DNA from: Gemmataceae bacterium
GTDB lineage: Bacteria > Planctomycetota > Planctomycetia > Gemmatales > Gemmataceae
Assembly (NCBI GenBank): GCA_025055215.1
Contig: JANWYO010000143.1
Location: forward strand, 827-64,826
Length of the DNA: 64,000 nt
Direction: 5' to 3'
The position numbers and the translations under genes are program-made. Positions 88 to 63,437 of the stretch are shown piece by piece. Within the stretch, counting starts at the first letter, position 1. Each line of letters starts with the position of its first letter. The notes beneath the pieces are model-generated. The model saw only the letters and a list, made by a program, of their open reading frames with translations, was not told the DNA's origin and searched no databases.

Positions 88-2148
88 GTGAGCACTGTCA
101 TCGAACCGCTCAGCCCCACCCCCCCGCCGACGCATCCGTCTCACTTTCCTGGGACGGCCCCGGAGCCGGCGCGGCCGAACATCCCTGGTCGGCTTGGCCC
201 GGAGTGGCTCAATCGCCTCAAAGTCGCCATCGGCTTACCGAGCCAGCGACGGCTGGCGCGGGCCGCCCTCCTGGTGCCCGTCATCCGCCATTGGGAGAAA
301 GAGTTCAGCCGGCTCAGCGATGAGGAACTGCGGAAGCGCGGCTTGCAGCTGCGCGGCCGGGCACGGGCGGGTCAATCGCTCGACTCCCTCCTCCCGGAAG
401 CCTTCGGCCTGGTGTGCGTGGCGGCTCAGCGGACGATCGGCCTGCGTCCCTTCGATGTGCAGCTGGCTGGCGCCGTGGTCCTGCACCACGGCGCCCTGGC
501 GGAGCTGGCCACCGGCGAGGGCAAGACCCTCACCGCCGCCCTCCCCGCCTTCCTTAATGCCCTCCCCGGCCGCGGCGTCCACATCACGACCGTCAACGAC
601 TACCTCGCCAAACGCGACGCCGAGTGGATCGGTCCGATCTACAACGCTCTGGGCCTGACGGTCGGCGTGCTGCAAATGAAAATGCCCGAGCACGAACGCT
701 ACCAGGCCTACCGCTGCGACATCACTTACGGCACGGCCTCGGAATTCGGCTTCGACTTCCTCCGCGACCGCATCAAAGTCGCCGGGGAAAAAGGCCAAGC
801 CAGCCCCTTTTGGATGCCCTGGGACGCCAACGGCTATAGCCGACCGCTCGATCCCCGGGTCCAACGGGAGCACTACTTCGCCCTGGTGGATGAGGCGGAC
901 TGCATTTTCATCGACGAGGCCAGCACGCCCCTGATCATCGGCGAGCCGACGCGCTGGCTCAAGGAGGAGGAGCAGGTCGTCTATCTGTGGGCCGACCGGG
1001 TCGCCCGGTCTCTGGTGCGCGACGAGCATTTTATCCTCGATGAGAAAAAGCAGAAGATCGAGCTGACAGACGCTGGTAAGCACAAGGTCCGCTGGTCGAA
1101 CCCCCCTGCCGGTCCGCACTCCCACGCGATGGACAAGCTCCACGAACACGTGGAGCGGGCCTTGCACGCTCATCACCGTTTCCGCCGCGACCAGCACTAC
1201 ATGGTGGAATTTGACGACGTCTTCCAGAAACACAAGGTCTGTATCATCGACGAATACACCGGCCGGAAAATGCCCGACCGCCACTGGCAGGACGGCCTGC
1301 ACCAGGCGGTCGAGGCCAAAGAGGGAGTGCCGATCACCAAGGCGACGGAACACGCGGCCCAAATCACGTATCAGACTTATTTCAGGCTTTACAAGAAGCT
1401 GTCGGGCATGACCGGCACCGCATACCAGAACTGGTGGGAGATTCGCCGGGTCTACAAGATCTGGGTGGTATGCGTGCCGACGAATCGGCCGGTCATCCGC
1501 GAGCACTGGCCGGAGAAAATCTTCCCCACCGAAGACGCCAAGTTTGCCGCCATCACCGAGGACGTGGCCAAGCTTCAGGCGGCGGGGCGTCCGGTCCTGG
1601 TCGGCACCCGGTCGGTCGAGAAATCGGAGAAGTTGAGCGAGCTGTTTCGGCAGCGGGGCATCGTCCATCAGATGCTCAACGGCAAGCAGCCGGAACCAGA
1701 GGCGCTGGTGGTGGATCGGGCCGGCGAGCGGGGACGAGTGACCATCGCCACCAACATGGCCGGCCGGGGCACCGACATCAAACTCGGCCCCGGGGTGCGC
1801 GAGCTGGGCGGCCTGCACGTCATCGGCACGGAAATCCACTCCGCCCGCCGCATCGACCGGCAGCTGGCCGGTCGGGCGGCGCGTCAAGGCGATCCGGGAA
1901 GTTGCCAGTTTTACCTCTCCCTGGAAGACGAAATCCTGGAGGCCCTCGGCGAAGACAAGCAGCGGCAACTCCTTCAGCTGGCCCGCAGCGGGGCCAACCT
2001 CGATTGGCAGAAATTTCGCCCTCTTTTTTTCAAGGCCCAACGCCGCAGCGAACGCCGCCTCCGCCGGCAGCGGGTCGATCTGATGCTGTACGAGCGGCAT
2101 CGGCAGGAAATCCTCAAGGATCTCGGGGCGGATCCTTACGTCGATTGA
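88..2148 (+). CDS. secA: SecA-family preprotein translocase ATPase, short paralogue (about 686-701 aa, lacks the C-terminal HWD/CTL/zinc-finger part)
   Basis: ORF 43..2148 carries SecA NBD1 (FDVQLAGAVVLHHGALAELATGEGKTL, VHITTVNDYLAKRDAEW), a PPXD-like middle and NBD2 (TNMAGRGTDIKLG, GLHVIGTEIHSARRIDRQLAGRAARQGDPGS). It ends about 200 aa short of canonical SecA. GGGAGAGG-N7-GTG at 88 is preferred over ATG 43. Confidence 0.8.
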   Translation: MSTVIEPLSPTPPPTHPSHFPGTAPEPARPNIPGRLGPEWLNRLKVAIGLPSQRRLARAALLVPVIRHWEKEFSRLSDEELRKRGLQLRGRARAGQSLDSLLPEAFGLVCVAAQRTIGLRPFDVQLAGAVVLHHGALAELATGEGKTLTAALPAFLNALPGRGVHITTVNDYLAKRDAEWIGPIYNALGLTVGVLQMKMPEHERYQAYRCDITYGTASEFGFDFLRDRIKVAGEKGQASPFWMPWDANGYSRPLDPRVQREHYFALVDEADCIFIDEASTPLIIGEPTRWLKEEEQVVYLWADRVARSLVRDEHFILDEKKQKIELTDAGKHKVRWSNPPAGPHSHAMDKLHEHVERALHAHHRFRRDQHYMVEFDDVFQKHKVCIIDEYTGRKMPDRHWQDGLHQAVEAKEGVPITKATEHAAQITYQTYFRLYKKLSGMTGTAYQNWWEIRRVYKIWVVCVPTNRPVIREHWPEKIFPTEDAKFAAITEDVAKLQAAGRPVLVGTRSVEKSEKLSELFRQRGIVHQMLNGKQPEPEALVVDRAGERGRVTIATNMAGRGTDIKLGPGVRELGGLHVIGTEIHSARRIDRQLAGRAARQGDPGSCQFYLSLEDEILEALGEDKQRQLLQLARSGANLDWQKFRPLFFKAQRRSERRLRRQRVDLMLYERHRQEILKDLGADPYVD

Positions 2149-3021: not shown

Positions 3022-3620
<599 letters not shown>

Positions 3621-5053: not shown

Positions 5054-6877
5054 TCAGCTGGGCCGATTGGCGTCGCCATCGCCCGCCGTCGGCACCGTCT
5101 CGGAGCGCGGCGGGGTGCTCGTGGCGCGCAGCGTCGGCGCCTCCACCATCTGCGTGACCCCCGTGCCCTCGCCAGCCGGCGGCGCCGCAGTGCCTGGTGC
5201 CGGCGTCGTGGTGCTGTAGGGCGGCTGCTCCTCGTCATCCTCCTCCCGGTAGACTTCGTCCATGTCGGTGTCATCGACCTTGCGGCGCATCAGGAAGTAG
5301 ATGATGGTACTCGCTCCCCAGAAGTAGCTGTAGCCGAAGCCCAGCACCAGCAGGAAGAAGAGGTACGTCCACACCGCCACCAGGAAGGCGCCGATCTTGT
5401 TCACCACGCTCAGGGAGTTGTAGTACTTCTCGAACAGTTCCGGCACGATCTGCCCGTTGACGACCACGCTGTTCCCGTCAACCGTCGCCCCCTGGACCAG
5501 CAAGTCACGCCAGCCAAACGAGGTCGGGGCATAGACAAACAAATACGACGGCTCGCGCGGGGCCCACAATCCCTGGCCTCGGGCCACGCCCCATTTCGCC
5601 AGATAGACCACCAACGACCCCATGAACCCAACAAAAAAGACGACTACCGCTCCGTAGGCGACGGCCACCAGGCAGTACCAGATGTAGCTCCAGGCGCCTT
5701 GAAAGACGTAGGTGTAGGAGCGGCTGATGGCGTCGAAGCTGTCGCTTCCCTCGGCGCTGATGGTGGCGTTCATCATCGGCCAGCCGACGAGGCCCACGAG
5801 GACGACCGCCATGACGAGGCCGCCGAGCAAGGGGATCGGCCACAGGAGGCCGTCAAGCACGATGTCGCCCAAGCCGGGGATGATGGCGACGATGCCGAAG
5901 AGCATCAGGCCCACGACAACCGCGGCCACCAAACCGAGGGGCAAAAGGGGCGCCGACAAGTACGACAGGTAACGGGATCCGACGAAGCGGATGGCCTCTC
6001 CCATGCCGATTTTCTCGTTGCAGGCAAGTTCGACCGCTGCCATGCGGGTGATCGCCCCGCCGAAAAAGGCCCAAGTGGCCAGGGTCCACAGGATGACCAG
6101 GAGAAAGTAGAACCGGTTCACGAAGCCGGCGTTGGGAGAGAGGAAAAAGACCACCGGACGGAAAAACTTGACCAGTGGTTCAATGAGGACCGGGAACTGT
6201 CGCGTGACCAGCCACTCGCCGGCGTGCCCTGCCTCCCAAGGGATGCCGGTTTGACCAGTCACTAACAGGTAGGGGTTGGGGCCGCGGTCCTCAAAAAACG
6301 GCCACATCCGCAGTTGACCATACGGCTTCGGGCGACTGTCCAGCCATTTGCGCGGGGCTTCCTTACGCTTCCCGAGCAGAATTTCCTCGCGGATCTGGGC
6401 CCGAGTCTTCGAACCATCGGCGATTTCGGCGTTAATATTAGCAAACTGCGGGGCAAGCTGTTCGTATTCATCGGGTCCATCGGCAAGGTCGCCGGCGTCG
6501 AGGTACTCAACCTCTTTTTCGCTGGTCGGGGCGCTGCCGGCAGCCTGGTAGCGGAGGTTCCAGATGCGGCGGTCTTCCTTAAAATGTTGCCAGGCGAGTT
6601 GCCGGCCCAAGGACCTGCGCTTTTCCTCAGCGAGCTGGCTGTCGGTCGGTTCATACGCGCGAGTGTTGGCGAGGTAGTCCTCGGGTTGCGGTTTTTTGCT
6701 CGAGGCGATGAAGATGACGGCCAACAGCCACCAGCCGAAGGACATGACCAAGATTCCGGCGGCGGCCAAGAGTAGCTTCCGGGGATCCAAAGCGACGGCG
6801 AACCCGCGGAACAACTCCGTCCAAGGCAGCCATTGTCGGAAGTTCCCACTGCGCAGATCGACGTTTCCCTCGGCCAT
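5054..6877 (-). CDS. Multi-pass membrane protein, conserved hypothetical, with acidic then Pro/Thr-rich C-terminal tail
   Basis: ORF 5054..7183, start trimmed to ATG 6877 (MAEGNVDLRSG) preceded by GGAAGGAG. Several long hydrophobic segments. The upstream 102 codons lie in an intergenic repeat and look non-coding. Confidence 0.7.
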   Translation of the reverse strand: MAEGNVDLRSGNFRQWLPWTELFRGFAVALDPRKLLLAAAGILVMSFGWWLLAVIFIASSKKPQPEDYLANTRAYEPTDSQLAEEKRRSLGRQLAWQHFKEDRRIWNLRYQAAGSAPTSEKEVEYLDAGDLADGPDEYEQLAPQFANINAEIADGSKTRAQIREEILLGKRKEAPRKWLDSRPKPYGQLRMWPFFEDRGPNPYLLVTGQTGIPWEAGHAGEWLVTRQFPVLIEPLVKFFRPVVFFLSPNAGFVNRFYFLLVILWTLATWAFFGGAITRMAAVELACNEKIGMGEAIRFVGSRYLSYLSAPLLPLGLVAAVVVGLMLFGIVAIIPGLGDIVLDGLLWPIPLLGGLVMAVVLVGLVGWPMMNATISAEGSDSFDAISRSYTYVFQGAWSYIWYCLVAVAYGAVVVFFVGFMGSLVVYLAKWGVARGQGLWAPREPSYLFVYAPTSFGWRDLLVQGATVDGNSVVVNGQIVPELFEKYYNSLSVVNKIGAFLVAVWTYLFFLLVLGFGYSYFWGASTIIYFLMRRKVDDTDMDEVYREEDDEEQPPYSTTTPAPGTAAPPAGEGTGVTQMVEAPTLRATSTPPRSETVPTAGDGDANRPS

Positions 6878-6971
6878 GCCACGCTCCTTCCTTTGAAACC
6901 GGCTGTCGGTCGGCATCAAAGCGGGATTATAGAACTTGGCCAAGCAAAGGGAAACGTCCCGCAAAGGGGAG

Positions 6972-7158
6972 GGGGCTGCCGGATTTCGATGGGGCGAGGG
7001 AGCAGCGGGGGAAAGCGATCGATCGATTCGCCTTCGCGCCAGGATGGGCAAACGCCTGCCCGCACGCAGGGAGCGCGAAACGTTCCGTCGTGGGAAAAGA
7101 TGAATTGGCGGGGAGTGGGGAAAATCCGCCGCCTGGAGCGCGCAATACCGCCCTGAAA
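6972..7158 (-). repeat. Intergenic repeat family, copy 1
   Basis: The reverse complement aligns block by block with 51221..51441: TTCAGGGCGG..GCGCTCC..GGATTTTCCCCACTCCCCGCC..ATTCAT..CCCATCCTGGCGCGAAGGCGAATCGATCGATCGC..CCCCGCTGCTCCCTCGCCCC..GAAATCCGG. Confidence 0.65.
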
Positions 7159-7182
7159 GACAGGCGCACCGCAAGAGAGGCA

Positions 7183-9011: not shown

Positions 9012-9039
9012 ACCATACCGCGCCCACGGCCAAGGTCAA
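9012..9039 (-). promoter_or_regulatory. Sigma70-like promoter candidate TTGACC-N16-TATGGT for the beta-barrel gene
   Basis: Hexamers read on the minus strand, 17 nt downstream of the 3' end of repeat copy 2 and about 150 nt upstream of ATG 8858. Confidence 0.35.
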
Positions 9040-19071: not shown

Positions 19072-19419
19072 GCTTCCTTCCCTGTCCGTGGGCGCGGCAT
19101 ATCCGCAGGCGCTCGACTGTAGAGACTATATCGGCCATGACGGATCGTTCGCGACACACTGCCGCCGCTTTTCGTCACTTGCTCACCACTGGTTCAAGGG
19201 CGTCTTCCCGAAAGCGCACTGATCCATTTTTGTCGCGACCTCGACGGTCGCCTCGGAAGACCCAGGTTGACGACCGTACCCAAACGAGGGACCGTCATTT
19301 GAGATTGGCCGCGGCCGGCGAGGAAAGCGGATTAAACACGGAGGAAACACCAAGAGCGACTTAGTTAACGACCACGGACAATCCCCCAGAGCGTCACTAA
19401 GGCGAACATGGTCGGCGAC

Positions 19420-19441
19420 GGGGTGGCCCATGGGCCACCCC
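19420..19441 (-). terminator. 22-nt perfect palindrome about 30 nt downstream of tRNA-Ser
   Basis: GGGGTGGCCCATGGGCCACCCC. No U-tract. Confidence 0.35.
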
Positions 19442-19473
19442 TGGAGAGTTGCTCGGACTGAATGAGGGAAGAC

Positions 19474-19558
19474 CGGAGGGAGAGGGATTCGAACCCTCGA
19501 TGGCTTTCGCCATGCCGGTTTTCAAGACCGGTGCAATCGGCCGCTCTGCCATCCCTCC
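19474..19558 (-). tRNA. tRNA-Ser (anticodon UGA), class II with long variable arm
   Basis: Reverse complement GGAGGGA..CCGGT-CTTGAAA-ACCGG..CATGGCGAAAGCCATC..GAGGG-TTCGAAT-CCCTC-TCCCTCC-G. 7-bp acceptor stem. CCA is not encoded. Confidence 0.9.
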
Positions 19559-19653
19559 AAGGTGTTGAAGGGCATCGTCAGGACGCTCTTCGCGCCCATT
19601 CTACCCGTTGGTCGAAAGGGAGTCTATTCGGTGTCGCAGGCAGGTGCGACCAT

Positions 19654-19860
19654 GTTTGGAGCGGGATTGACCGCTCTAAGCGGCGCTCTTTCCCCCTTCC
19701 GCCGATCCCTCGGTTCGCGCTGGCGATTGATCGGTTCGGGCTGACGATTGATCGGTTAGGGCTCGCAGTGTGCCCCGCGAGGCTCTCGCGGCGATCGAGC
19801 CAGCGCGGACCGATCAATTTGTCTCCGCCGCTGTCCCCCTGCCCCGGCGAAATCCAGTGG
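19654..19860 (+). repeat. Intergenic repeat family, copy 3 (central hairpin replaced by two tandem 21-mers)
   Basis: GTTTGGAGCGGGATTGACCGCTC..GCTCTTTCCCCC..GATCCCTCGGTTCGCGCTGG at the 5' end. CCAGCGCGGACCGATCAATTTGTCTCCGCCGCTGTCCCCCTGCCCCGGCGAAATCCAGTGG at the 3' end. Confidence 0.6.
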
Positions 19861-20003
19861 TACAAACTTCGGAGGCGGTCAACGGAGTCGGCGGGCCGTC
19901 GACCGCGGGCGTTGTCGCGAAGGGGAAGACGCATCACAATGAGAGGCGGAAGGCGACGCCACGAGTCCCTTTCAGGTCTCAGGTGAGTGCTCGCGGGGTG
20001 GTG

Positions 20004-22178
20004 ATGACGGTCGCAGAGGCGCTGGAACGGGCGCGGGGCCACATCCGGCAGGGGCAATGGGCCGAAGCCGAGAGCTGGGTTCGGGAGGTGATCCGTGTGG
20101 CCCCGGGAGAGGCGGCGGCGTTCCAACTCCTGGCCACCATTGCCCACGGGGTGGGGCGTCCGGAAGCCGCGGAGTTGGCCTTGCGCGAGGCCATCGCCAG
20201 GGCTCCGAGTCAGGCCGAGAACTACGCCTTCTTGGCGAGCCTGCTGGCGGCGCAGGGGCGGCTGGCGGAGGCCGAGGCGGCAGCGCGACGCGCGGTGATG
20301 TTGCAGCCGGGCTGGGCGGTGGCGTATGCCCAGCTGGGCGACATACTTCTCGCGCAGCGGCGCCTGGCCGAGGCGGAAGCCGCCTATCGCCATGCCTTGG
20401 CGTGGGCCCCGGCGATGGCGGAAGCGTGGTGCCAGCTGGGAGCGGTGCTGCGGGCCCAGGGCCGCCTCGGCGAAGCGGAGATGGCCCTCCGCCAGGCCCT
20501 CGCCTTGAACCCCCAATCCGCCAGCGCGGAAAAGCTCCTTGGCCACGTCCTCAAAAGCCAGGGCCGCCTCCTCGAGGCCGAAGCCGCCTATCTCCGCTCC
20601 ATCACCTGGAACCCGACGGACGCCACGACCTTCGGCAACCTCGGCGATGTCTACCACTTGCAAAGCCGCTTCCAGGACGCCGAACGCGCCTATCGCCAAG
20701 CCTTGGCCTTGTCGCCGACCTACGGCGGCGCCGTCAACAATCTGGCCTATGTCCTCGAGGCCCAAGGCCGCCTCGACGAGGCGGAAGCGGCAGCGTGGCG
20801 GGCGTTGGAACTGTTGCCCAACTTGCCGGAGGCGCACCTCAACCTGGGCAATCTGATGCAGACCCGTGGCCGACTGGAGGAAGCCATCCGACATTTCCGC
20901 CGAGCGCGGGAGCTGCGCCCCAGCTACGTCTCGGCCTCGAGCAACATCCTGCGCTGCGAGCAGTATCGACCCGGTATTACGCCGGCCCGCCTGGCCCAGT
21001 TGCACCGCGACTGGGAAGCCCGGCACGTCGCCGAGCTTCGTCAGCTGCCCCGTGACCTTCCTAACGGCCGCGATCCCGACCGCGTGCTACTCCTGGGCCT
21101 GATCTCCAATGATTTCTGTCGTCATCCCGTTGGCTACTTCGTGGCCCCACTTTTTGAACACCACGACCGCGAGCGACTTCAGATCGTCTGCTATGGGGAT
21201 CGGGTTCGGGCTGACGATTGGACAGATCGGCTGCGGGCCGCGGCGGACGAATGGCACGATATCCGACTTCTGGACGACGAGCAGCTAGCCGAGCGCATCC
21301 GCGCCGACCGCATCGACCTCCTCGTCGACCTGGCCGGCCACACTGCCTACCATCGCCTGCTGACGTTCGCTCGCAAGCCGGCGCCGCTCCAGTTCACATG
21401 GATTGGCTACACGGGGACGACCGGCCTGTCGGCCATCGATTATCTGATCGCCGATCGCTTCCATGTTCCGGAAGGGGACGAGGCGCACTACTGTGAGAAG
21501 GTACTGCGACTCCCGGATGGCTACGTGTGCTATCCGCCGCCGGAGGATGCGCCGACGGTGGGGCCGCTGCCCGCCCAAGAGGCGGGCTGCGTGACCTTCG
21601 GCAGCTTTAACTATCCCGCCAAGATCACGCCGCCGGTGATCGCGCTGTGGGCCGACATTCTGCGACGCCTGCCGGGATCACGGCTGCTGCTGAAATTCAA
21701 CGGTTTGGGCGACCCCGGCCTCCGCCGTCGATTGTTGGATCAATTCGCCGCCGCCGGCATCGATCCCGGGCGGCTGGAGCTGCAAGGTTGGTCGCCGCGA
21801 CGACAGCTCCTGGAAACCTACCACAAGGTAGACATCGCCCTCGATCCGTTCCCTTACTCCGGAGGGCTGACGACCTGCGAAGCGTTATGGATGGGAGTGC
21901 CGGTGATCACCTGCCCGGGGGAGACGTTTGCCGGCCGGCACTCGTTCAGTCACCTGTCGAATGCGGGGCTGACCGAGACGATTGCTCGGGATCGGGATGA
22001 GTACGTCCGTCTGGCGGTGGAGCTGGCGCGGGACTGGCCGCGGCTGGCGGCGCTGCGGGCGGGCCTGCGGGAACGGATGCGGAGGTCGCCGTTGTGTGAC
22101 GGGCCGCGGTTTGCCCGCCATGTGGAGGCGGCGTTGCGAAGCGTCTGGCGCCGCTGGTGCCAGGACCACCCGGCATGA
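20004..22178 (+). CDS. TPR-repeat protein fused to a GT41 (SPINDLY / O-GlcNAc-transferase-like) glycosyltransferase domain
   Basis: About 10 TPR units (AEAAYR.AL...P). C-terminal domain with LVDLAGHT, TWIGYTGTTGL.AIDYLIAD, LDPFPYSGGLTTCEALWMGVPV. Start trimmed to ATG 20004. Confidence 0.8.
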   Translation: MTVAEALERARGHIRQGQWAEAESWVREVIRVAPGEAAAFQLLATIAHGVGRPEAAELALREAIARAPSQAENYAFLASLLAAQGRLAEAEAAARRAVMLQPGWAVAYAQLGDILLAQRRLAEAEAAYRHALAWAPAMAEAWCQLGAVLRAQGRLGEAEMALRQALALNPQSASAEKLLGHVLKSQGRLLEAEAAYLRSITWNPTDATTFGNLGDVYHLQSRFQDAERAYRQALALSPTYGGAVNNLAYVLEAQGRLDEAEAAAWRALELLPNLPEAHLNLGNLMQTRGRLEEAIRHFRRARELRPSYVSASSNILRCEQYRPGITPARLAQLHRDWEARHVAELRQLPRDLPNGRDPDRVLLLGLISNDFCRHPVGYFVAPLFEHHDRERLQIVCYGDRVRADDWTDRLRAAADEWHDIRLLDDEQLAERIRADRIDLLVDLAGHTAYHRLLTFARKPAPLQFTWIGYTGTTGLSAIDYLIADRFHVPEGDEAHYCEKVLRLPDGYVCYPPPEDAPTVGPLPAQEAGCVTFGSFNYPAKITPPVIALWADILRRLPGSRLLLKFNGLGDPGLRRRLLDQFAAAGIDPGRLELQGWSPRRQLLETYHKVDIALDPFPYSGGLTTCEALWMGVPVITCPGETFAGRHSFSHLSNAGLTETIARDRDEYVRLAVELARDWPRLAALRAGLRERMRRSPLCDGPRFARHVEAALRSVWRRWCQDHPA

Positions 22179-39569: not shown

Positions 39570-40164
39570 CGTCTCTCCTCCATGCCCGTGGCGGGTCGTC
39601 CCCATCCGGCCGGAACAACGGCCCGGAGCGCTCCACGGCTAGCCAGGCAAGGACCACCAGCCAGCGGACCATCATCAACCCGACGAAGGTGATGACGATC
39701 CACGTCAGGGCCTGTTCCATCGACCGAATGAACAGCGGCCGCGCCCGCCAGGCGCTGGCCAGCCCCCACGGAACCAGGGCCAAGCCGAACACAGCCGTCA
39801 GCGTGCCCACGGCATTCGCTTGGAGCGAATACCAGACGCTGATCGGTCGGCCGTGCACCAGGCCGTCCATCAACAGGGCGAAGCTGGTGGTCATGCCGCA
39901 CGACGGGCACGGCAGACCGGCCAACGCCCGGAAGGAACACGGCGGCAGCCCCAGCTGTTGGTGCGTCCCCAGCCGCAGTGGCTGACCCTGATCGTCGTAA
40001 GGGTTTAACCGCGCCGCGACGATGAACACGGCCACCAGTCCCAGGGCCATGCCTACCAGCGCCCCGCGGACCCAGACGGTCAGCACGGGCAGGACCTCAG
40101 GTGCTTTCGCCGTTGGCTCGGACGATTGCCAGGGAGCGGGCACGATAGCGTTCTTCCTGTCCAT
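39286..40164 (-). CDS. DUF2752-family membrane protein with a long out-of-family C-terminal tail
   Basis: Signature LPPCSFRALAGLPCPSCGMTTSF plus 4 TM helices. The frame stays open to 39286, so it overlaps the lipoprotein gene by 284 nt. Start is ATG 40164 or GTG 40194. Confidence 0.6.
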   Translation of the reverse strand: MDRKNAIVPAPWQSSEPTAKAPEVLPVLTVWVRGALVGMALGLVAVFIVAARLNPYDDQGQPLRLGTHQQLGLPPCSFRALAGLPCPSCGMTTSFALLMDGLVHGRPISVWYSLQANAVGTLTAVFGLALVPWGLASAWRARPLFIRSMEQALTWIVITFVGLMMVRWLVVLAWLAVERSGPLFRPDGDDPPRAWRRDDGTAPHTPAARWQLGPGGGLDPRLQSDRCALLPHVRSGAEDRPALPVGSARQESRSAGDGARQLGARDPARIPPCGARAGQSSGATAGERLPAK

Positions 40165-40199
40165 GTCAAGCGCGACTTGAGTGGCCGGGTACACCCATT

Positions 40200-40450
40200 G
40201 TTCAAGGCGGGGTTGAGCGCTCCGGGCCGCGGTTTTTCCCCAAGCCCCCGCCGCGCCGATTCCTCGTCTCGCACACGCTGGGCACGCAGCGAACGCGAAA
40301 CGATCGATCTGCCTGCGGGCCCAGCACGCGCCTCCCGTCCTTGCGCCAGCGCGAACCGATGGATCGGTTGTCAGGTCCGTCGCGACGCGACCCGGCGCGG
40401 CCCGAGCGCGAACCGATCAATGGATGGTTGGACCGTCCCTGAGTTTAGGG
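40200..40450 (+). repeat. Intergenic repeat family, copy 4 (internal duplication of the GCGCGAACCGAT module)
   Basis: GTTCAAGGCGGGGTTGAGCGCTCCGGGCCGCGGTTTTTCCCCAAGCCCCCGCC, CGCAG/CTGCG hairpin, GCCCAGCACGCGCCTCCCGTCCTTGCGCCAGCGCGAACCGATGGATCGGTT, then a second CGAGCGCGAACCGATCAATGG. Confidence 0.65.
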
Positions 40451-40558
40451 TCGGTCACTGCCTCGCGGGGATCCCATGTCCCTCCACTCACCTATCATCC
40501 GCATTGCGACCACCACCGGGCGTAAGCCGCTTGACCATCGCCCGCAGCGCGGCAAACC

Positions 40559-41539
40559 TCACTCACTGCGAAACGTCACCGGAATCTCGACGACTTCCGC
40601 CATCGGTTGCCGGAGTCGAACTCGGACGGTGGTGCGCACCTCCCCGCCTCGGACCCGGCTGCGATCGACATGAAGCCGCACCGTGCTCATGTCGTGTGGT
40701 CCCTCGGCCCAGGTGGCAGTGATGGCCGGATCGTCCGACGTCACCTCCGCCACCTTGACAGCTTGCCGATCAGCCGCTCGGATCAGAACGATGCGGGATG
40801 GCACCGGCTGCCCCCGCGGCACCGACCAAGTCACCTCTCCGGGCAAGGCCGACACATTGTGCCGAGGCTTTTTGATAATCGTAACCGGCACGTTCAGGGT
40901 GCGGTAGGCAGGGTCATCGGTGTACACGGTGACACGCTCCTCGTGCCGACCGGGAGGCAGGTCGTCCCGCACCGTCAGGCGAATGACCCACGTCGGCCGA
41001 TCACCCCGTGTCGGTGGCGGCGGCTCGACCGCCGCCGCGACCCACGGCGAGCTGCTGTCGGCCGCCGTCACACGCAGCGATTGATCTCGCAGATCGGTGA
41101 CGCGGATTTCGTGGCAGACCCCTTTGTCGGCGTAAATGTGCAGGCTCGCGGGCTGTACCTGCACCTCCGTCACCAGGCGAGCCGCGAGCGTTAGCGTCGT
41201 TTCCCGGACCTGCCCTCCTTCCTCGAAACGGAGGACCAGTGTCCATGTGTTCGGACCGGCTGGCTGCGTCAGGGTGTTGATTTCCAGCCGAACGCTCCCG
41301 CTCTCCCCGGGCTGGTACGTGCGCCGCTCGACGCGGGGCACCAGGCAGCCGCAGCTGGCACGGGCGTCGAGGAGGGTCACGGAAGCAGGGCCAGGATTGA
41401 CGAAGGTGAAGGAAGGCGTCAGGGCGGTGCCGGTGCGCACCTCGCCGACATCCACATGCCGCGCCGAGAATTGAGGCTCGGCACGAACGGGACTGGCCGC
41501 CAGTAAGGCTAGAAGGCAAAAGCAGGTCCGTTTCGGCAT
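40559..41539 (-). CDS. DUF1573 domain-containing secreted protein
   Basis: Signal peptide MPKRTCFCLLALLAASPVRA. DUF1573 core VDVGEVRTGT..FTFVNPGPASVTLLDARASCGCLVP. Start ATG 41539 follows GGGAGAG. Confidence 0.75.
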   Translation of the reverse strand: MPKRTCFCLLALLAASPVRAEPQFSARHVDVGEVRTGTALTPSFTFVNPGPASVTLLDARASCGCLVPRVERRTYQPGESGSVRLEINTLTQPAGPNTWTLVLRFEEGGQVRETTLTLAARLVTEVQVQPASLHIYADKGVCHEIRVTDLRDQSLRVTAADSSSPWVAAAVEPPPPTRGDRPTWVIRLTVRDDLPPGRHEERVTVYTDDPAYRTLNVPVTIIKKPRHNVSALPGEVTWSVPRGQPVPSRIVLIRAADRQAVKVAEVTSDDPAITATWAEGPHDMSTVRLHVDRSRVRGGEVRTTVRVRLRQPMAEVVEIPVTFRSE

Positions 41540-51099: not shown

Positions 51100-51220
51100 C
51101 GTTCCACTCCTGGCTAGGACAAGATCCGTGGTTCCCCCTCACTTTAGTAGACGACCCGGGGTTTCTCCAGTTTTTTACCCCCTGGAGGTGCCGTCGAGGG
51201 ATGCACCTAGTTGGCGCGGC

Positions 51221-51441
51221 GTTCAGTGGTTCAGACGGCGGTTTTTCCCCACCTCACTACTCATTCCTCGTAGCGCGCCCATGATTCATCCGTTGGCGTT
51301 CGCGCGGCATGTAGCGAGCGCCAAGCGATCGAATCGTGAACGCTAGCTACATGCCCAGCACCCGGCTCCCATCCTCGCGCGAGCGCGAACCGATCGGTCG
51401 CTCTCCGCCGCTGCACCCTCGCCCTGCCCAAATCCAGAGGG
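51221..51441 (+). repeat. Intergenic repeat family, copy 5 (reference copy)
   Basis: GTTCAGTGG..GGCGGTTTTTCCCCACC..ATGATTCATCCGTTGGCGTTCGCGCG, GCATGTAGC/GCTACATGC hairpin, CCCAGCACCCGGCTCCCATCCTCGCGCGAGCGCGAACCGATCGGTCGCTCTCCGCCGCTGCACCCTCGCCCTGCCCAAATCCAGAGGG. Confidence 0.7.
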
Positions 51442-51527
51442 ACGCCTCTGCCGGGCTTTGCCTTGTGGCAGCGAAGCCCCTCTTCTATACTGGCAAGCGA
51501 ATGTCGAACCGAAGGACGTCAAGAGCG

Positions 51528-52430
51528 ATGGAGACTGCCGCGAACCTGACGGCCGAGCAACGGGCGAAGCGTGATCACCTGTTGGAGGTGTTGCGCTCGT
51601 ATGGCAGCGCGGCGGTGGCTTTCAGCGGCGGCATCGACAGCACGGTGGTAGCGCAGGCGGCCTTCCTGGCTTTGGGCGAGCGGGCCGTGGCCGTCACGGC
51701 CGACAGCCCGAGCGTGGCCCGCGCCGAGTTGGACGAGGCCCGGCAGCTGGCCCGGCGGATCGGCATTCGCCATCGGGTGATCATCACCGCCGAGTTCGGC
51801 AATCCCGATTACGTCCGCAACGACGGCCGGCGATGCTATTTCTGCAAGAGCGAACTTTATCAGCGCCTGGAGGCCCTGCTGCCGGAGTTGGGCGTGGCGG
51901 TGATGTGCAGCGGGGCGAACCTGGACGATTTGGGTGATTATCGGCCGGGGCTATGGGCGGCGGCCGAGCATCGTGTGCGCCATCCGCTGCAGGAGGCTGG
52001 CTGCACGAAGGCGGACGTGCGGGCGCTGGCCCGGTCGTGGGGCCTGCCGAACTGGGACAAGCCGGCGTCGCCGTGCCTGTCGAGCCGAATCGCGCCCGGG
52101 GTGGCGGCGACGCCGGAGCGGGTGGCGCGGGTGGAGGCGGCCGAGGCCTTGCTCAAGTCCCTGGGTTATCGCGAGTGCCGGGTGCGCGTCCACGAGGGGG
52201 AGCTGGCCCGGATCGAAGTCCCGCCGACGGAGGTGGCCCGGCTGGCCGACCCCGCGGTGTCTGCCGTGGTCATCGGGCGTTTTCGGGAGTTGGGGTTCCG
52301 CTTCGTGACGCTCGACCTCGAGGGATTTCGCTCCGGCAGCCTGAACGTGTTGGTGCAACTGACAACGCCGACGCTCGACGGTCTGGGTTTTCGCAGGGAG
52401 GGTGTCGGCTCGGGAGCCTCGAAGCCATGA
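51528..52430 (+). CDS. larE: LarE-family ATP-dependent sulfur transferase (PP-loop ATP pyrophosphatase)
   Basis: PP-loop AFSGGIDST. Cys triad RRCYFCK...PASPCLSSRI. ATG 51528 (GAAGGA upstream) fits the predicted TATACT -10 at 51486. ATG 51501 is an alternative. Confidence 0.75.
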   Translation: METAANLTAEQRAKRDHLLEVLRSYGSAAVAFSGGIDSTVVAQAAFLALGERAVAVTADSPSVARAELDEARQLARRIGIRHRVIITAEFGNPDYVRNDGRRCYFCKSELYQRLEALLPELGVAVMCSGANLDDLGDYRPGLWAAAEHRVRHPLQEAGCTKADVRALARSWGLPNWDKPASPCLSSRIAPGVAATPERVARVEAAEALLKSLGYRECRVRVHEGELARIEVPPTEVARLADPAVSAVVIGRFRELGFRFVTLDLEGFRSGSLNVLVQLTTPTLDGLGFRREGVGSGASKP

Positions 52431-53158: not shown

Positions 53159-53186
53159 CCGACAACCTTCGAAGGCGCCGTATAAT
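53159..53186 (+). promoter_or_regulatory. Promoter of RNase P RNA: CCGACA-N16-TATAAT
   Basis: Perfect TATAAT at 53181-53186, 7 nt before the first base of the extended P1 helix. Confidence 0.55.
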
Positions 53187-53193
53187 TAATGAT

Positions 53194-53625
53194 GGTCCGC
53201 AAGTCGGCCGGACGGTCGCTGCCCGTGGGCGCGTCGGTGTCATGCCGGCTGGCGTCCCGGGGAGAGGAAAGTCCGGGCTCCACAGGACACGGTGGTGGGT
53301 AACGCCCACCGTCCGCGAGGACCGGGATAGTGCAACAGAAAGCATACCGCCCGAAGTCGGGTCGGTGAGGCCCGATTTTGGGTAAGGGTGAAAAGGTGGG
53401 GGGACTTCGGTCCCTTAATGTAAGAGCCCACCAGCAGCCGGGTGACCGGCTGGCTCGGCAAACCCCACCGGGAGCAAGGCCAAGTAAGGGAGGAGGGCTG
53501 GTCCGGCCCGCTGTGAACTCCCGGGTAGGCCGCTGGACCACACGGGCAACCGTGCGGCTAGATAAATGACCGTCCCCAGGACCGATCCTGGGACAGAACC
53601 CGGCTTACAGGCCGACTCGCGGACC
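53194..53625 (+). ncRNA. rnpB: RNase P RNA, bacterial type A
   Basis: GGAGAGGAAAGTCCGGGCTCCACAGGACA (P4/J3-4), AGTGCAACAGAAAGCATACCGCC, GGTAAGGGTGAAAAGGTG, ACAGAACCCGGCTTACAGGCCGAC. The 5' GGTCCGCAAGTCGGCC pairs with the 3' GGCCGACTCGCGGACC. Followed by GTTTTTG. Confidence 0.95.
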
Positions 53626-58036: not shown

Positions 58037-58065
58037 GCTATATCTTGCCTCGCCAGCGGTTTCAA
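58037..58065 (-). promoter_or_regulatory. Sigma70-like promoter TTGAAA-N17-TATAGC for the hydrolase gene
   Basis: Read on the minus strand, 18 nt downstream of the 3' end of repeat copy 6 and about 95 nt upstream of ATG 57935. Confidence 0.4.
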
Positions 58066-58083
58066 GCGGACGTGTCGGGGAGA

Positions 58084-58302
58084 GTCCCTTAGGATCTCGG
58101 CGGGACGAAGGAGAGCAACCAAGGGCGATCGGTCCGCGCTCGCGCGACGATGGGAGATGCGTGCCCGACACGCAGATACCGTTCACCTTTCATCGATTCG
58201 CGGTCGCTGCGTCCCGGGCGAAGGCGAGAAACGGTGAATCGTGAGCGCGGAACGAGGACGTGGCGGGGAAAAACCGTGGCGCGCTCAACCCCGCCCCTGA
58301 AC
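58084..58302 (-). repeat. Intergenic repeat family, copy 6
   Basis: Reverse complement GTTCAGGGGCGGGGTTGAGCGCGCCACGGTTTTTCCCCGCC..CGATTCACCG..ACGCAG/CTGCGT hairpin..CATCTCCCATCGTCGCGCGAGCGCGGACCGATCGCC..GAGATCCTAAGGGAC. Confidence 0.7.
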
Positions 58303-58340
58303 GACAGATGTATCGTGTCGGGCGAAGGCCCGGCCGGCGA

Positions 58341-58431: not shown

Positions 58432-60945
<2,514 letters not shown>

Positions 60946-61294
60946 TCCAGCCATCTCCAACCGTCCCGCAGCGGCCGCGGCCGACCCTTCGCGGCGGCAG
61001 CAGGGGAAATCCACGTTGTCGGTCCTAAAGTTTCTTCTCGTCCCGGTCCGTTCACCTGGCTCGGCGCCGTTCGGGCGAGGAGCCCACGAACTTCGAGGTA
61101 TCTCCGGCCAGGTCCGAGGGAGTTGCTTTCCGCGGTATGGTGCGAAACCGTCTGTCCCTCACCAAATTCTAAGGAGAATATCACCCTGAATCAAGGCATG
61201 GGCCTGGGTCGGGCGCGGGCCTGCCGCATGCCCGTGTGGCAGCAACTTTGCCGCCTTTCCGGCAACACCCCTCTTGCTCCAACTCCCTGGCAGT

Positions 61295-62152
61295 TTACCC
61301 TCCTTCGCCCAAAGCATCGATTTCCTCGGCATCAAGGACCAAGTCGTTCCGTTCGAAGAGACGGGCGATGGCAGCCTTGTGGATTTTCATCTTGATGCCG
61401 CCCACGCCGATCGCCCCGTAGGCGATGACCCCGTCGCGTTCAGTCGCTTTGTCAGCCACGTCGATCCCTTCGATGCCCAGCGGGGGCACAGCATTGAGAT
61501 CGACCACGACCCGGAGCGTGGGACAGGCGCGGCGGGCAGCCAGCGGCAGGAGCAGGACGCCGGCGGCGCCGGCGGCGATGGCGAGTTGGCAGCCGGCCAA
61601 CGCCGCCGACAGGTCGCTGGGAGCGGGTTGCACGCGTGCCTCGGGCACCTTGCGGCGGATCGCCTCGACGGCGGCCTGGGCCCGGGCCGGCTGCCGGGAG
61701 CCAATGCGGACCTCGGCCCCGCGTCGGGCCAAGAGCCGGGCCACCCGTTGGCCGACTGGTCCGGTGCCGCCCAGGACCAGGGCGGTCGTTTGCGCCAGGT
61801 CGAGGTGCCGGGCGGCGGAGCGGACGGCCGCCGCGGCCGTGGTGTTGGCGCCGTTGGCGTCGAGCATTACCGAGACCCGCAGGCCGAACTGCGGCAGCAT
61901 GTGTCGGAGGGCCTCCTGCAACAGCGCCTCGCCGACGCTGACGTCGCTGCCGCCGATGAACAGCGCCGTGCGCCTGAGGTCCTGGGGCCCTCGAGTGAAA
62001 ATGGCACCATGCACCAGATTGCGGACCTGCTCTCGCTGCACGCCGCCGTAGCTGAAGACTTCGTCGGCGCCGGCATCGAGGGCGACGACCCGGTCGAAGA
62101 CGCTCGGCTGCGGGTCGGGATCGATCTGGATGAGGATGGTGCGTTTGGTCAT
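61295..62152 (-). CDS. mtdA: NAD(P)-dependent methylene-tetrahydromethanopterin/tetrahydrofolate dehydrogenase (MtdA family)
   Basis: ILIQIDPDPQPSVFDRVVALDAGADEV, MLDANGANTTAAAAV, VLGGTGPVGQRVARLL, PPLGIEGID, IGVGGIKMKIHKAAIARLFE. Collinear with methylotroph MtdA as I recall it. Start trimmed to the internal Met (MTKRTIL). Confidence 0.85.
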   Translation of the reverse strand: MTKRTILIQIDPDPQPSVFDRVVALDAGADEVFSYGGVQREQVRNLVHGAIFTRGPQDLRRTALFIGGSDVSVGEALLQEALRHMLPQFGLRVSVMLDANGANTTAAAAVRSAARHLDLAQTTALVLGGTGPVGQRVARLLARRGAEVRIGSRQPARAQAAVEAIRRKVPEARVQPAPSDLSAALAGCQLAIAAGAAGVLLLPLAARRACPTLRVVVDLNAVPPLGIEGIDVADKATERDGVIAYGAIGVGGIKMKIHKAAIARLFERNDLVLDAEEIDALGEGG

Positions 62153-62229
62153 CGGCGGGCCGCTCCCTCGCTGGCGCCTGGGCGGCGGCGATCGCCGCCG
62201 CCCAGCCTCGGTGGCTGTCCCGTCGCCGA

Positions 62230-62727
62230 TCACTTTGGCGAAAACGGATGCTTCACCGAGTCCTTCTTCGTCAGGATCTCGTCAATCTTCGGTTCCGACT
62301 TCATGGCCCGTTCGATGGCGAGCTTGGTCGCTTCATAGTTGAACTGGTAGATCTTGTTGTCGTCTTTCGCCTCCCAATGGATGAAGACGCCGCAGACGAT
62401 GACCAACTTGTCCACGTCGGCCTTAGGAATGACGCCGGAGGCGACGCTGTCGGCCACGGCCCTGGCGACCGCCGCCTGGGCCGGCCCGAACATCTGCACC
62501 GCCTGCTTTTCGCCTTTGATCGTCACCTTGGTGATCAGCACCGTCGCTGGCTTGCAAATTAAGTTGGGAGTGAGCACCGCCAGCAGGTTGGAATGGCCTT
62601 GTTTCTGGTCGGCCAGGGCGTTGGCGAACGCCACGCCGACCGGGCCATCCTTCGAGCCAATGAGCAGGTCGATGTGGGCCACTTCGTTGCCGTCGCCGAC
62701 CAGGGCTTCGCCGATGTACATGGACAT
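62230..62727 (-). CDS. fae: Formaldehyde-activating enzyme (5,6,7,8-tetrahydromethanopterin hydro-lyase)
   Basis: GEALVGDGNEVAHIDLLIG, LLAVLTPNL.CKP, AVQMFGPAQ, GVFIHWEA.DD.KIY.FNYEATKLAI, 165 aa. AAAGGAAGA SD before ATG 62727. The rest of ORF 62230..63357 is non-coding-like. Confidence 0.9.
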   Translation of the reverse strand: MSMYIGEALVGDGNEVAHIDLLIGSKDGPVGVAFANALADQKQGHSNLLAVLTPNLICKPATVLITKVTIKGEKQAVQMFGPAQAAVARAVADSVASGVIPKADVDKLVIVCGVFIHWEAKDDNKIYQFNYEATKLAIERAMKSEPKIDEILTKKDSVKHPFSPK

Positions 62728-63180
62728 GATGCGTCTTCCTTTCTGTGCATGGAGGCTGGAAAAGTTGCTGCGGCCGACCCGCGTCGTCGCCAGGCGCCAC
62801 ATGCCGCCGGTCGGAGACGCATTGTACGGAACCCGCCAGCCATTGACCGCTGCGACCGCCTCCGAGCCTGGGTGCCAGCCGATCATCTGGGCTGCCGACC
62901 GCCAAGTCCATGCGTCAGCCCCATCCGGCAAGTCCCCTCCCATTCGAATGGTTTGCGTCGATCCGATCGCCGGTTCTTTGCGCACGGACCAACAGTCACG
63001 CCGGCCATCCAGCGACGAGATGAACGAGCGACGTTGCTCCGCATGCCGCCAAGCGGGCCGAACCGTAGATCGTGACGGATCAGCGGACCGCGAGCGATGC
63101 GGATTCGGACGTTCTCGCTCGGCGCTCCAGTGGATGTGTCTTTGTGCCGGCGATCGTTCGCCATGCCGGCGGTTTCGACT

Positions 63181-63230
63181 GTTCAGACGGCTCGCAATTG
63201 GACCACGCCCCGCGTTTTTCCACACCTTGC
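63181..63230 (+). repeat. Partial copy (5' module only) of the intergenic repeat family
   Basis: GTTCAGACGGCTCGCAATTGGACCACGCCCCGCGTTTTTCCACACC resembles GTTCAAGGCGGGGTTGAGCGCTCC..CGGTTTTTCCCCA. Confidence 0.4.
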
Positions 63231-63437
63231 GTGCAGGTCTTGGCAGAACAACTGGTCGTCGGGAAATCGCTGGGCGGCCCGGCAGGTGACGACCGAGGCT
63301 TGGGAAAGGAGCTGTTAACTTTTCCTGTCTTGGCCGTTTAGTTTTAGCGGAGTTCACTTCCTGGCATCGACCGCCAACGTGGCCGATGCACCTGACGGCC
63401 GCCGACCGCCCGGCGGGTGCGAAAGGAGCCGGACGCC

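Follow-up and report, generated by a model that had tools for sequence, protein, structure and literature searches.

Among described bacterial elements, those whose integration behaviour comes closest to that of the repeat family reported here are the Mutator-like TnGBS ICEs, the ISLre2 family (p-MULT 3) and the ISKra4 group (p-MULT 4), which insert 15-17 bp upstream of the sigmaA -35 box, with a peak at 16 bp, and generate 8- or 9-bp direct repeats (Guerillot et al. 2014, PMC3942029, which cites Brochet et al. 2009). The p-MULT elements carry inverted repeats of 18-39 bp with a terminal cytosine, members of the ISKra4 group with symmetric ends insert in either orientation, and p-MULT 4 elements are found in Planctomycetes among other phyla (PMC3942029). 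The tips of ISKra4-group elements end in ...GCACCC or ...ACGCCC, each with 9-bp repeats (Table S1 of PMC3942029), and neither the main text nor the supplements of that paper mention miniature derivatives. Fixed-offset integration upstream of promoters is a rare and well-defined targeting behaviour in bacteria, so far tied to a few Mutator-like transposon groups, mostly of Firmicutes and Cyanobacteria. Among eukaryotic retroelements, Ty3, Ty1 and the Dictyostelium TRE elements integrate at a fixed position relative to Pol III genes.

The family described below was found as six copies (c1 to c6) in a 64-kb window, the whole stretch of DNA analysed, and the sample is therefore six copies on one metagenome-assembled contig. 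It resembles the p-MULT elements in its offset from the promoter (12-17 nt, against the published 15-17 bp), at c6 alone in a 9-bp repeat that would match the 8-9 bp target duplication, in occurring in both orientations, like the ISKra4 group, and more tentatively in termini that end in C, the boundaries of our copies being partly chosen by alignment. The left tip GGTGCRCC also resembles the GGGTGC(A/G) of the ISKra4 group, a weak likeness of 5-7 nt that was noticed post hoc. On the other hand, the described elements are 1.1-52 kb long and carry a transposase, whereas the copies found here are 200-270 bp long and encode nothing; the inverted repeats of the described elements are undetectable in them, only one copy retains a direct repeat, and the family has an internal motif array and a covarying hairpin of its own. 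As with Ty3, Ty1 and TRE (PMC10050235), the target would be set by the transcription machinery or promoter architecture and by no DNA sequence motif, and the analogy of promoter-targeting elements with Ty3 has also been drawn in PMC3942029, although these eukaryotic retroelements have an unrelated enzymology.

Other small dispersed repeats share some of these traits. In common with bacterial MITEs such as Correia and ERIC (PMC10969869), the copies are short, non-coding, multicopy and intergenic (here AT-independent), often immediately upstream of genes, and variable in size, some being partly deleted. In classical MITEs, however, the terminal inverted repeats are clear and are accompanied by short target duplications (TA for Correia), while here the inverted repeats are not significant in any copy and a direct repeat flanks only c6; several MITEs also carry their own promoters (PMC10969869), whereas here the adjacent promoters belong to the genes. 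The putative mobile promoters of Matus-Garcia, Nijveen and van Passel (2012), as presented in a commentary (PMC3575422), are likewise homologous non-coding sequences upstream of unrelated genes in one genome, but they share at least 80% identity over at least 50 nt in the -150 to -50 region and contain the promoter, whereas our copies share 49-71% and the element contains none. REP, BIME and REPIN sequences, which RAYT transposases mobilise (PMC3733652, PMC8049555), are also densely packed outside genes, can form hairpins and lack classical inverted repeats and target duplications, yet REPs are 20-40-bp palindromes tagged GTAG or CGTC, whereas the present unit is 200-270 bp long, modular, tied to promoters and devoid of a conserved tag; GTAG occurs only in the hairpin arm of c5 and is not conserved among the copies. 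Models of the IS200/IS605, IS91 and REP types were set aside, since no conserved flanking tetranucleotide or pentanucleotide, GTAG/CGTC tag or subterminal hairpin pair was seen.

The repeat copies and their internal anatomy

The six copies constitute a real, previously undescribed repeat family. They lie at 6969-7170 (c1, minus strand, 202 nt tip to tip, 137 bits in nhmmer), 9052 to about 9286 (c2, minus strand, 164.5 bits), 19643-19867 (c3, plus strand, 225 nt, 145.7 bits), 40187-40454 (c4, plus strand, 165.4 bits), 51198-51448 (c5, plus strand, 251 nt, 198 bits, the best match to the family model) and 58080-58314 (c6, minus strand, 235 nt, 176.6 bits, the second-best match), with sizes ranging from 202 to 268 nt and a density of about one copy per 10 kb. 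In c2 the 5' terminal block has diverged and the 5' limit was taken from the HMM. The original prediction that the six segments can be aligned over their whole length proved correct, with homology across the full length and a mean column identity of 61%, and the strong nhmmer matches of an HMM built from the six copies were those six places only in the 64-kb window (E 1.7e-38 to 3.9e-54). With a refined HMM, a model with about 15 nt added on the 5' side, the copies scored 137-198 bits against a best of 8.2 in ten shuffled windows. The many indels described between copies were seen again, and pairwise identity is 49-71%. While the six places stood, the 5' limits first given were short by about 12-15 nt, the boundary lying that much farther out at a GGTGCRCC block common to five of the six copies; the tips used here were set by alignment to c5 and c6, so that the boundaries are partly alignment-chosen. 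Two additions to the family did not survive: the 5'-module fragment proposed at 63181-63230 on the plus strand was unsupported by module HMMs or direct alignment, and the degenerate pieces proposed at 62950-63140 went unseen by the module HMMs, direct alignment giving at most a marginal match on the minus strand (63081-63137, z 3.3) that did not exceed the best shuffle. A degenerate autonomous copy at 62.2-63.4 kb was likewise considered and rejected, as the region consists of the Fae gene and a long intergenic stretch with no transposase domain.

The copies are non-coding, as had been claimed: reading frames are broken or shift from copy to copy, none being preserved, and all six are intergenic according to GC3-based gene calls and Pfam. 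Gene callers place no ORFs in them, and the six-frame translation of the consensus had no match at E <= 10 among 5.8 billion proteins. Since the flanking genes are unrelated (DUF7847, an OMP-like protein, WD40, TPR/GT41, DUF2752, DUF1573, HEAT/arylsulfotransferase, LarE, an alpha/beta-hydrolase and ClpC), the likeness of the repeats is not conservation between paralogues. Some copies have peculiarities of their own. The 5' end of c1 adjoins the terminator-like hairpin (site 7183-7166) of the upstream OMP-like gene; c3 has the CGATTGATCG motif twice in tandem; c4 is directed into the 3' end of the convergent DUF1573 gene and has an aberrant 3' end that includes an additional GAGCGCGAACCGATCAATGG block (40404-40423); and c6 has the ClpC terminator hairpin on one side and the alpha/beta-hydrolase promoter on the other. 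Two proteins of the window have identical counterparts annotated on a 66.8-kb contig of a Gemmataceae MAG (locus tags NZ700_), and look-ups of exact proteins gave this contig and short Logan contigs only. The Logan contig L033 ends inside c5, and a repeat-induced assembly break was considered as the cause, but another contig (L066) spans c1 and c2 intact and copies at about 65% identity would not confuse an assembler.

From 5' to 3' the element comprises the GGTGCRCC terminal block, a G-rich / GAGCGCTC / T5-C4 module, a CGATTCATCG block, a central hairpin, a AGCGCGAACCGATCG block and a CCGCCGCTGC...CCCCGCCGAAATCCAGAGGGAC module. In c5 the hairpin occupies 51306-51355 of the plus strand, with arms GGCATGTAGC ... 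GCTACATGCC that show paired changes relative to the ACGCAG/CTGCGT of c2, c4 and c6. It is retained in four of the six copies, where 80.6% of cells are paired, compared with 28-38% when the register is slid, and its 5' arm is lost in c1 and c3. Five pairs are changed on both sides, a value that was reached by 2 of 500 shuffles and that comes from four sequences only, and two G-U pairs fit the sense strand only. Each copy contains the 10-bp palindrome CGAT-NN-ATCG between once and four times, in several places that are not homologous; all four exact CGATNNATCG sites of the window fall within the elements, which total 1.4 kb, as do 13 of its 30 one-mismatch sites, an enrichment that is 34-fold for CGAT-NN-ATCG and specific to the 2-nt spacing. 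Both these palindromes and the conserved hairpin in the centre may have a structural or protein-binding role in the element. GATC and CGATCG are also enriched in the copies, 2-fold and 8-fold, but a GATC/Dam-type enrichment was discarded as independent evidence because the occurrences are at homologous positions. Folding of the whole element was not clearly better than that of shuffled sequence (z -0.1 to -2.1), and the reading of the full unit as one long palindrome or a stable RNA was dropped given weak self-complement and folding scores. Nor could the 5' module be read as an intrinsic terminator, as no hairpin directly precedes its T-run and the scanner found none. The internal hairpin and the motif array exceed the needs of a minimal two-ended MITE, which leaves room for a selected function.

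Position relative to promoters and comparison with related genomes

The original prediction missed the fixed promoter offset of every copy. When copies are delimited by their tips, each of the six has an outward-facing predicted sigma70-like promoter next to one terminus, which lies 12-17 nt upstream of the -35 box. Four copies face the promoter with the 3' end: c1 is 14 nt from the -35 box of the DUF7847 promoter (6926-6954, minus strand, TTTCCC-17-TATAAT), c2 is 12 nt from that of the OMP-like gene (9012-9039, minus strand, TTGACC-16-TATGGT), c5 is 14 nt from that of LarE (51463-51491, plus strand, TTGTGG-17-TATACT) and c6 is 14 nt from that of the alpha/beta-hydrolase (58037-58065, minus strand, TTGAAA-17-TATAGC). 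The other two face it with the 5' end, c3 at 16 nt from the divergent promoter of tRNA-Ser(TGA) (19598-19626, minus strand, TAGACT-17-TAGAAT) and c4 at 17 nt from the divergent promoter of DUF2752 (40142-40169, minus strand, TTGACA-16-TATCGT). With HMM-defined ends and a relaxed promoter scan, the gap to the outward-facing promoter is 14-21 nt in all six copies. In c1, c2, c5 and c6 the sole hexamer starting with TAT in the 120 nt past the 3' box is at +54 to +58 (TATAAT, TATGGT, TATACT and TATAGC, respectively; background of TAT 0.0022 per position), and hexamers starting with TTG are found at +32 to +35 in c2, c5 and c6, c1 having only a weak TTTCCC there.

The relaxed scan gave 38 promoter-like matches in the window, including plausible ones for RNase P RNA and ClpC, and none inside any copy; about 7 of about 15 distinct intergenic promoter-like sites detected in this way adjoin an element. 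With the strict scanner, the promoter-like matches in the c2, c3 and c4 regions all adjoin an element end. The tRNA-Ser promoter is the sole promoter-like match in 19300-20200, and the DUF2752 promoter is the sole strict one in 39900-40800. By permutation, the probability that all six copies (6/6) have such a gap is 1.5e-11 under uniform intergenic placement; confining the copies to the 150 nt ahead of a promoter-like site raises it to 1e-6, and confining them to within 60 nt of one, which is very conservative, to 5e-5. All three values are somewhat optimistic in that the gap window was defined post hoc from the data. The promoters are consensus predictions, three of them backed by conservation in relatives. 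A sigma54-type reading of the spacers was rejected on inspection of the sequences, which have no consistent GG-N10-GC geometry.

The relatives compared were four, three with 77-79% identity in LarE and one with 46% identity in the OMP-like protein. The LarE promoter is kept without the element as TTGAGT-17-TATACT (L035), TTGAGG-17-TATCAT (L034) and TTGAGA-17-TATACT (L068), in each case as far from the start codon as in the window. In the fourth relative (L067), the TATAAT of the DUF7847 promoter and the downstream CC.CTTTGA are kept without the element, and the OMP orthologue, where the element is also absent, has CTCTTGACT...TATAGTCCGCGACCTTCC, the OMP promoter regions of the window and of L067 being alignable from CTCTTGAC onwards. 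The presence of these three promoters in relatives devoid of the element indicates that they are native to their genes. Moreover, the LarE spacer is 428 nt long here against 167-204 nt in relatives (c5 measures 251 nt), and for DUF7847 a spacer of about 376 nt compares with one of 193 nt (c1 measures 202 nt). Since the spacers are longer by about the length of the element, the element is best taken, on sequence comparison, for an insertion directly in front of promoters that were already there. Short likenesses to the 3' end of the element upstream of promoters in L067 (TCGCCCCGCCG and CACCCTCGCC) were unsupported by the module HMMs and were taken as GC-rich noise.

In the 60 kb covered by the four relatives there was no copy, no module and no exact CGATNNATCG site, against about 5.6 copies expected at the density of the window. 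The Rfam search returned no match overlapping any copy even at E <= 10, only RNase P RNA and one tRNA passing the gathering score; phage and plasmid collections held nothing similar to the repeat, and literature searches turned up no described equivalent in Planctomycetes. As a probe for pattern scans we used a 22-mer that matches four of the six copies and for which 0.01 matches are expected per window. It gave 32 single chance matches and no multicopy genome in the genome collection, 30 matches in the metagenome collection, none extended by the HMM past the pattern itself, and zero matches in the viral collection. As far as the available data can show, the repeat family therefore appears confined to this lineage. 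That no described family could be recognised in it thus stands; that its kind would also be unrecognisable probably does not, given a promoter offset like that of Mutator-like transposons.

Ends of the element and its probable origin

The only significant direct repeat is that of c6, CCCGACACG, 9 nt long and perfect at 9 of 9 positions, with its 3'-side copy at 58071-58079 (minus strand) and its 5'-side copy at 58314-58322 (shuffle P = 0.003-0.007). At the other five copies direct repeats are at chance level (Fisher combined P 0.055 for all six and 0.56 without c6), and decayed 9-bp target duplications there, which we considered, are indistinguishable from chance; the earlier statement that target-site duplications are missing was accordingly right for five copies and wrong for c6. 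It was right throughout on terminal inverted repeats, as local alignment of the termini was no better than shuffles in each copy. Tip-anchored inverted-repeat identity was not significant either (P = 0.09-0.68), and a likeness of about 24 nt between consensus ends, seen by eye, was not significant in any copy. The left tip reads GGTGCRCC (its complement ends in ...GCACC) and the right tips end in ...CTC or ...TTC. Neither a transposase, in agreement with the original prediction, nor an HUH/RAYT domain was found among the Pfam-scanned ORFs of the 64-kb window. With 49-71% identity the copies are old, and decay may since have erased most flanking repeats, along with any terminal inverted repeats.

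Taken together, the family is best explained by old insertions of a small non-autonomous element with a Mutator-like, promoter-upstream targeting. We infer that the copies arose by transposition, that the fixed offset reflects the target choice of the transposase and that the enzyme is Mutator-like. The element would be MITE-like in the broad sense, with no coding content, and would integrate in either orientation in a stretch about 12-17 bp upstream of a sigma70-type -35 box; its most likely mobiliser would be a DDE transposase of the p-MULT class (TnGBS/ISLre2/ISKra4 kind) whose gene would lie in another part of the genome. This mobiliser is proposed because that group is the one known to combine an offset of 15-17 bp upstream of the -35 box with target duplications of 8-9 bp. 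The element probably behaves like a promoter-targeting p-MULT transposon of which it would be a miniature non-autonomous derivative, but membership is left unproven, since inverted repeats are undetectable and no transposase lies in the window. On balance, and with a confidence only a little above even, we favour a lineage-restricted non-autonomous mobile element inserted upstream of promoters and most likely mobilised by a p-MULT transposase.

ALTERNATIVES

An element of this sort could also be mobile and promoter-adjacent without any Mutator-like transposase, through another recombinase or targeting mechanism or through the survivorship of only those random insertions that fell in a tight neutral slot between terminator and promoter, a reading with a modest probability in our judgement. 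It accommodates the lack of inverted repeats, and of direct repeats in five of the six copies, and the 5' end of c1, which directly adjoins the upstream terminator-like hairpin, implies that the tolerated slot is small. But in the four copies with tandem contexts the free spacer on the far side amounts to 81 (c1), 117 (c2), 104 (c4) and 114 nt (c6), yet the near gap is 12-17 nt, and with 80-117 nt available on the other side survivorship alone fails to explain so short a gap; the permutation value of 5e-5 with placement limited to 60 nt also speaks against it, and a single described group of transposases combines such an offset, a 9-bp repeat and insertion in both orientations. The constant distance has also to be weighed as the mark of a selected cis-regulatory module, a portable array (CGAT-NN-ATCG, GGTGCACC, GAGCGCTC) placed at a fixed phase and bringing genes under one regulator. 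The distance itself, the enrichment of CGAT-NN-ATCG with its specific spacing and the conservation of blocks despite the low overall identity would fit such a module, which we nevertheless consider doubtful: either end may face the promoter and the two ends are unlike each other, the adjacent genes have no common function, c4 is directed into the 3' end of a convergent gene, half of the hairpin is lost in c1 and c3, and relatives keep the same promoters without the element. A regulatory role is possible as a later co-option of a mobile element and is not favoured as its origin. A variant in which the element is not a decayed IS but a promoter-homing module without inverted repeats, whose machinery reads promoter architecture or RNA-polymerase-bound DNA and whose functional arrays and hairpin make it a regulatory cassette, seems to us rather improbable; were it true, many promoters would have been rewired in this Gemmataceae lineage.

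Structured non-coding RNA genes or RNA leaders are unlikely, and we leave them only a slim chance. The central hairpin kept through compensatory changes, its sense-strand G-U pairs and the folding of c3 and c5 in the sense orientation, which beats shuffles by a modest margin (z about -2), point in that direction, but Rfam has no match even at E <= 10, folding of the element as a whole is weak, no copy contains a promoter-like site, the strict scanner finds no terminator-like site at the 3' ends of the elements, and the orientation relative to neighbours is mixed; the elements are also upstream of the neighbours' promoters and thus outside those mRNAs. Least probable of all, and rejected because it is contradicted at three loci, is that the repeat unit itself carries -35 and -10 boxes to new genes. 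Mobile promoters are an established concept (Correia elements, PMC10969869; putative mobile promoters, PMC3575422), and in four copies the boxes do lie at a constant distance from the 3' box. However, the LarE, OMP and DUF7847 promoters are orthologous to those of relatives without the element, the sequences beside different copies share consensus hexamers only, c3 and c4 face the promoter with the other end, and the promoters lie 12-17 nt outside the unit.

Should the preferred reading of a promoter-upstream, p-MULT-mobilised element be true, so dense a miniature family would extend promoter targeting to non-autonomous elements and to a new phylum-level context, that of an uncultured planctomycete, and would offer many natural pairs of promoters with and without an upstream insertion for assessing the effect on expression of a displacement of about 230 bp. 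The copies may also aid promoter prediction in a poorly characterised phylum, since each should have a -35 box some 12-17 nt past one of its ends. The density of about one copy in 10 kb means that around one in five promoter-bearing intergenic regions of the window harbours a copy.

Promoter-like sites and start codons

The bacterial class A RNase P RNA is encoded on the plus strand at 53200-53623 (263 bits), and a promoter-like CCGACA-16-TATAAT at 53159-53186 ends 14 nt upstream of it. The relaxed promoter scan, our search for sigma70-like promoters in the window, could be usefully checked against this locus as a positive control. Behind two of the promoters adjoining copies of the repeat family, an ATG follows the -10 box after 9 nt, at 6916 for the DUF7847 gene (TATAAT-9-ATG, -10 box 6926-6931) and at 51501 for the LarE gene (TATACT-9-ATG, -10 box 51486-51491). 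Orthologues and the MAG's own annotation favor the downstream starts at 6877 and 51528, respectively, over these ATGs, and the true start codons and leader lengths at both loci are uncertain.

Aberrant and borderline repeat matches

The plus-strand copy c4 (40187-40454) carries an additional direct copy of the block beginning GAGCGCGAACCGATC at 40404-40423, 57 nt past the regular one, and its 3' end has been replaced (CCCTGAGTTTAGGG hairpin). Another 16 nt past this end comes a weak promoter-like site (ATCCCA-16-TATCAT), directed antisense into the convergent DUF1573 gene. Farther along, a gene with an Mpt_N domain (methylene-tetrahydromethanopterin dehydrogenase-like) stands in tandem with a gene for the formaldehyde-activating enzyme Fae, the two together at 61298-62715 (minus strand), and an unusually long divergent intergenic region of ~650 nt (62740-63395) separates the pair from a PSCyt2/DUF1549 gene; the sole match to the repeat family in that region is borderline (63081-63137, minus strand).

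In public collections, the 22-mer pattern that matches four of the six copies was also encountered twice on an unrelated metagenome contig, Ga0137420_1474926, at 1700-1721 (+) and 3408-3429 (-), inverted and 1.7 kb apart. The family HMM gave no match at either site, and the two 22-mers may mark the inverted termini of a different element.

Other features of the window

In the ClpC-like gene (58432-61014, minus strand), one in-frame TAA at 59137-59139 stands where the conserved GY.GYEEGG motif should have its tyrosine (...PPGYIG*EEGGQL...), interrupting the AAA_2 domain at profile positions 60/62. Either this important chaperone gene bears a nonsense mutation, or the MAG consensus contains an error here. 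The 64 kb contain a single PstI site, CTGCAG (51987-51992), where dinucleotide-preserving shuffles of the whole window predict 20.5 ± 4.6. Such scarcity amounts to strong avoidance of this palindrome and is an indication that the lineage has a PstI-type restriction-modification system.
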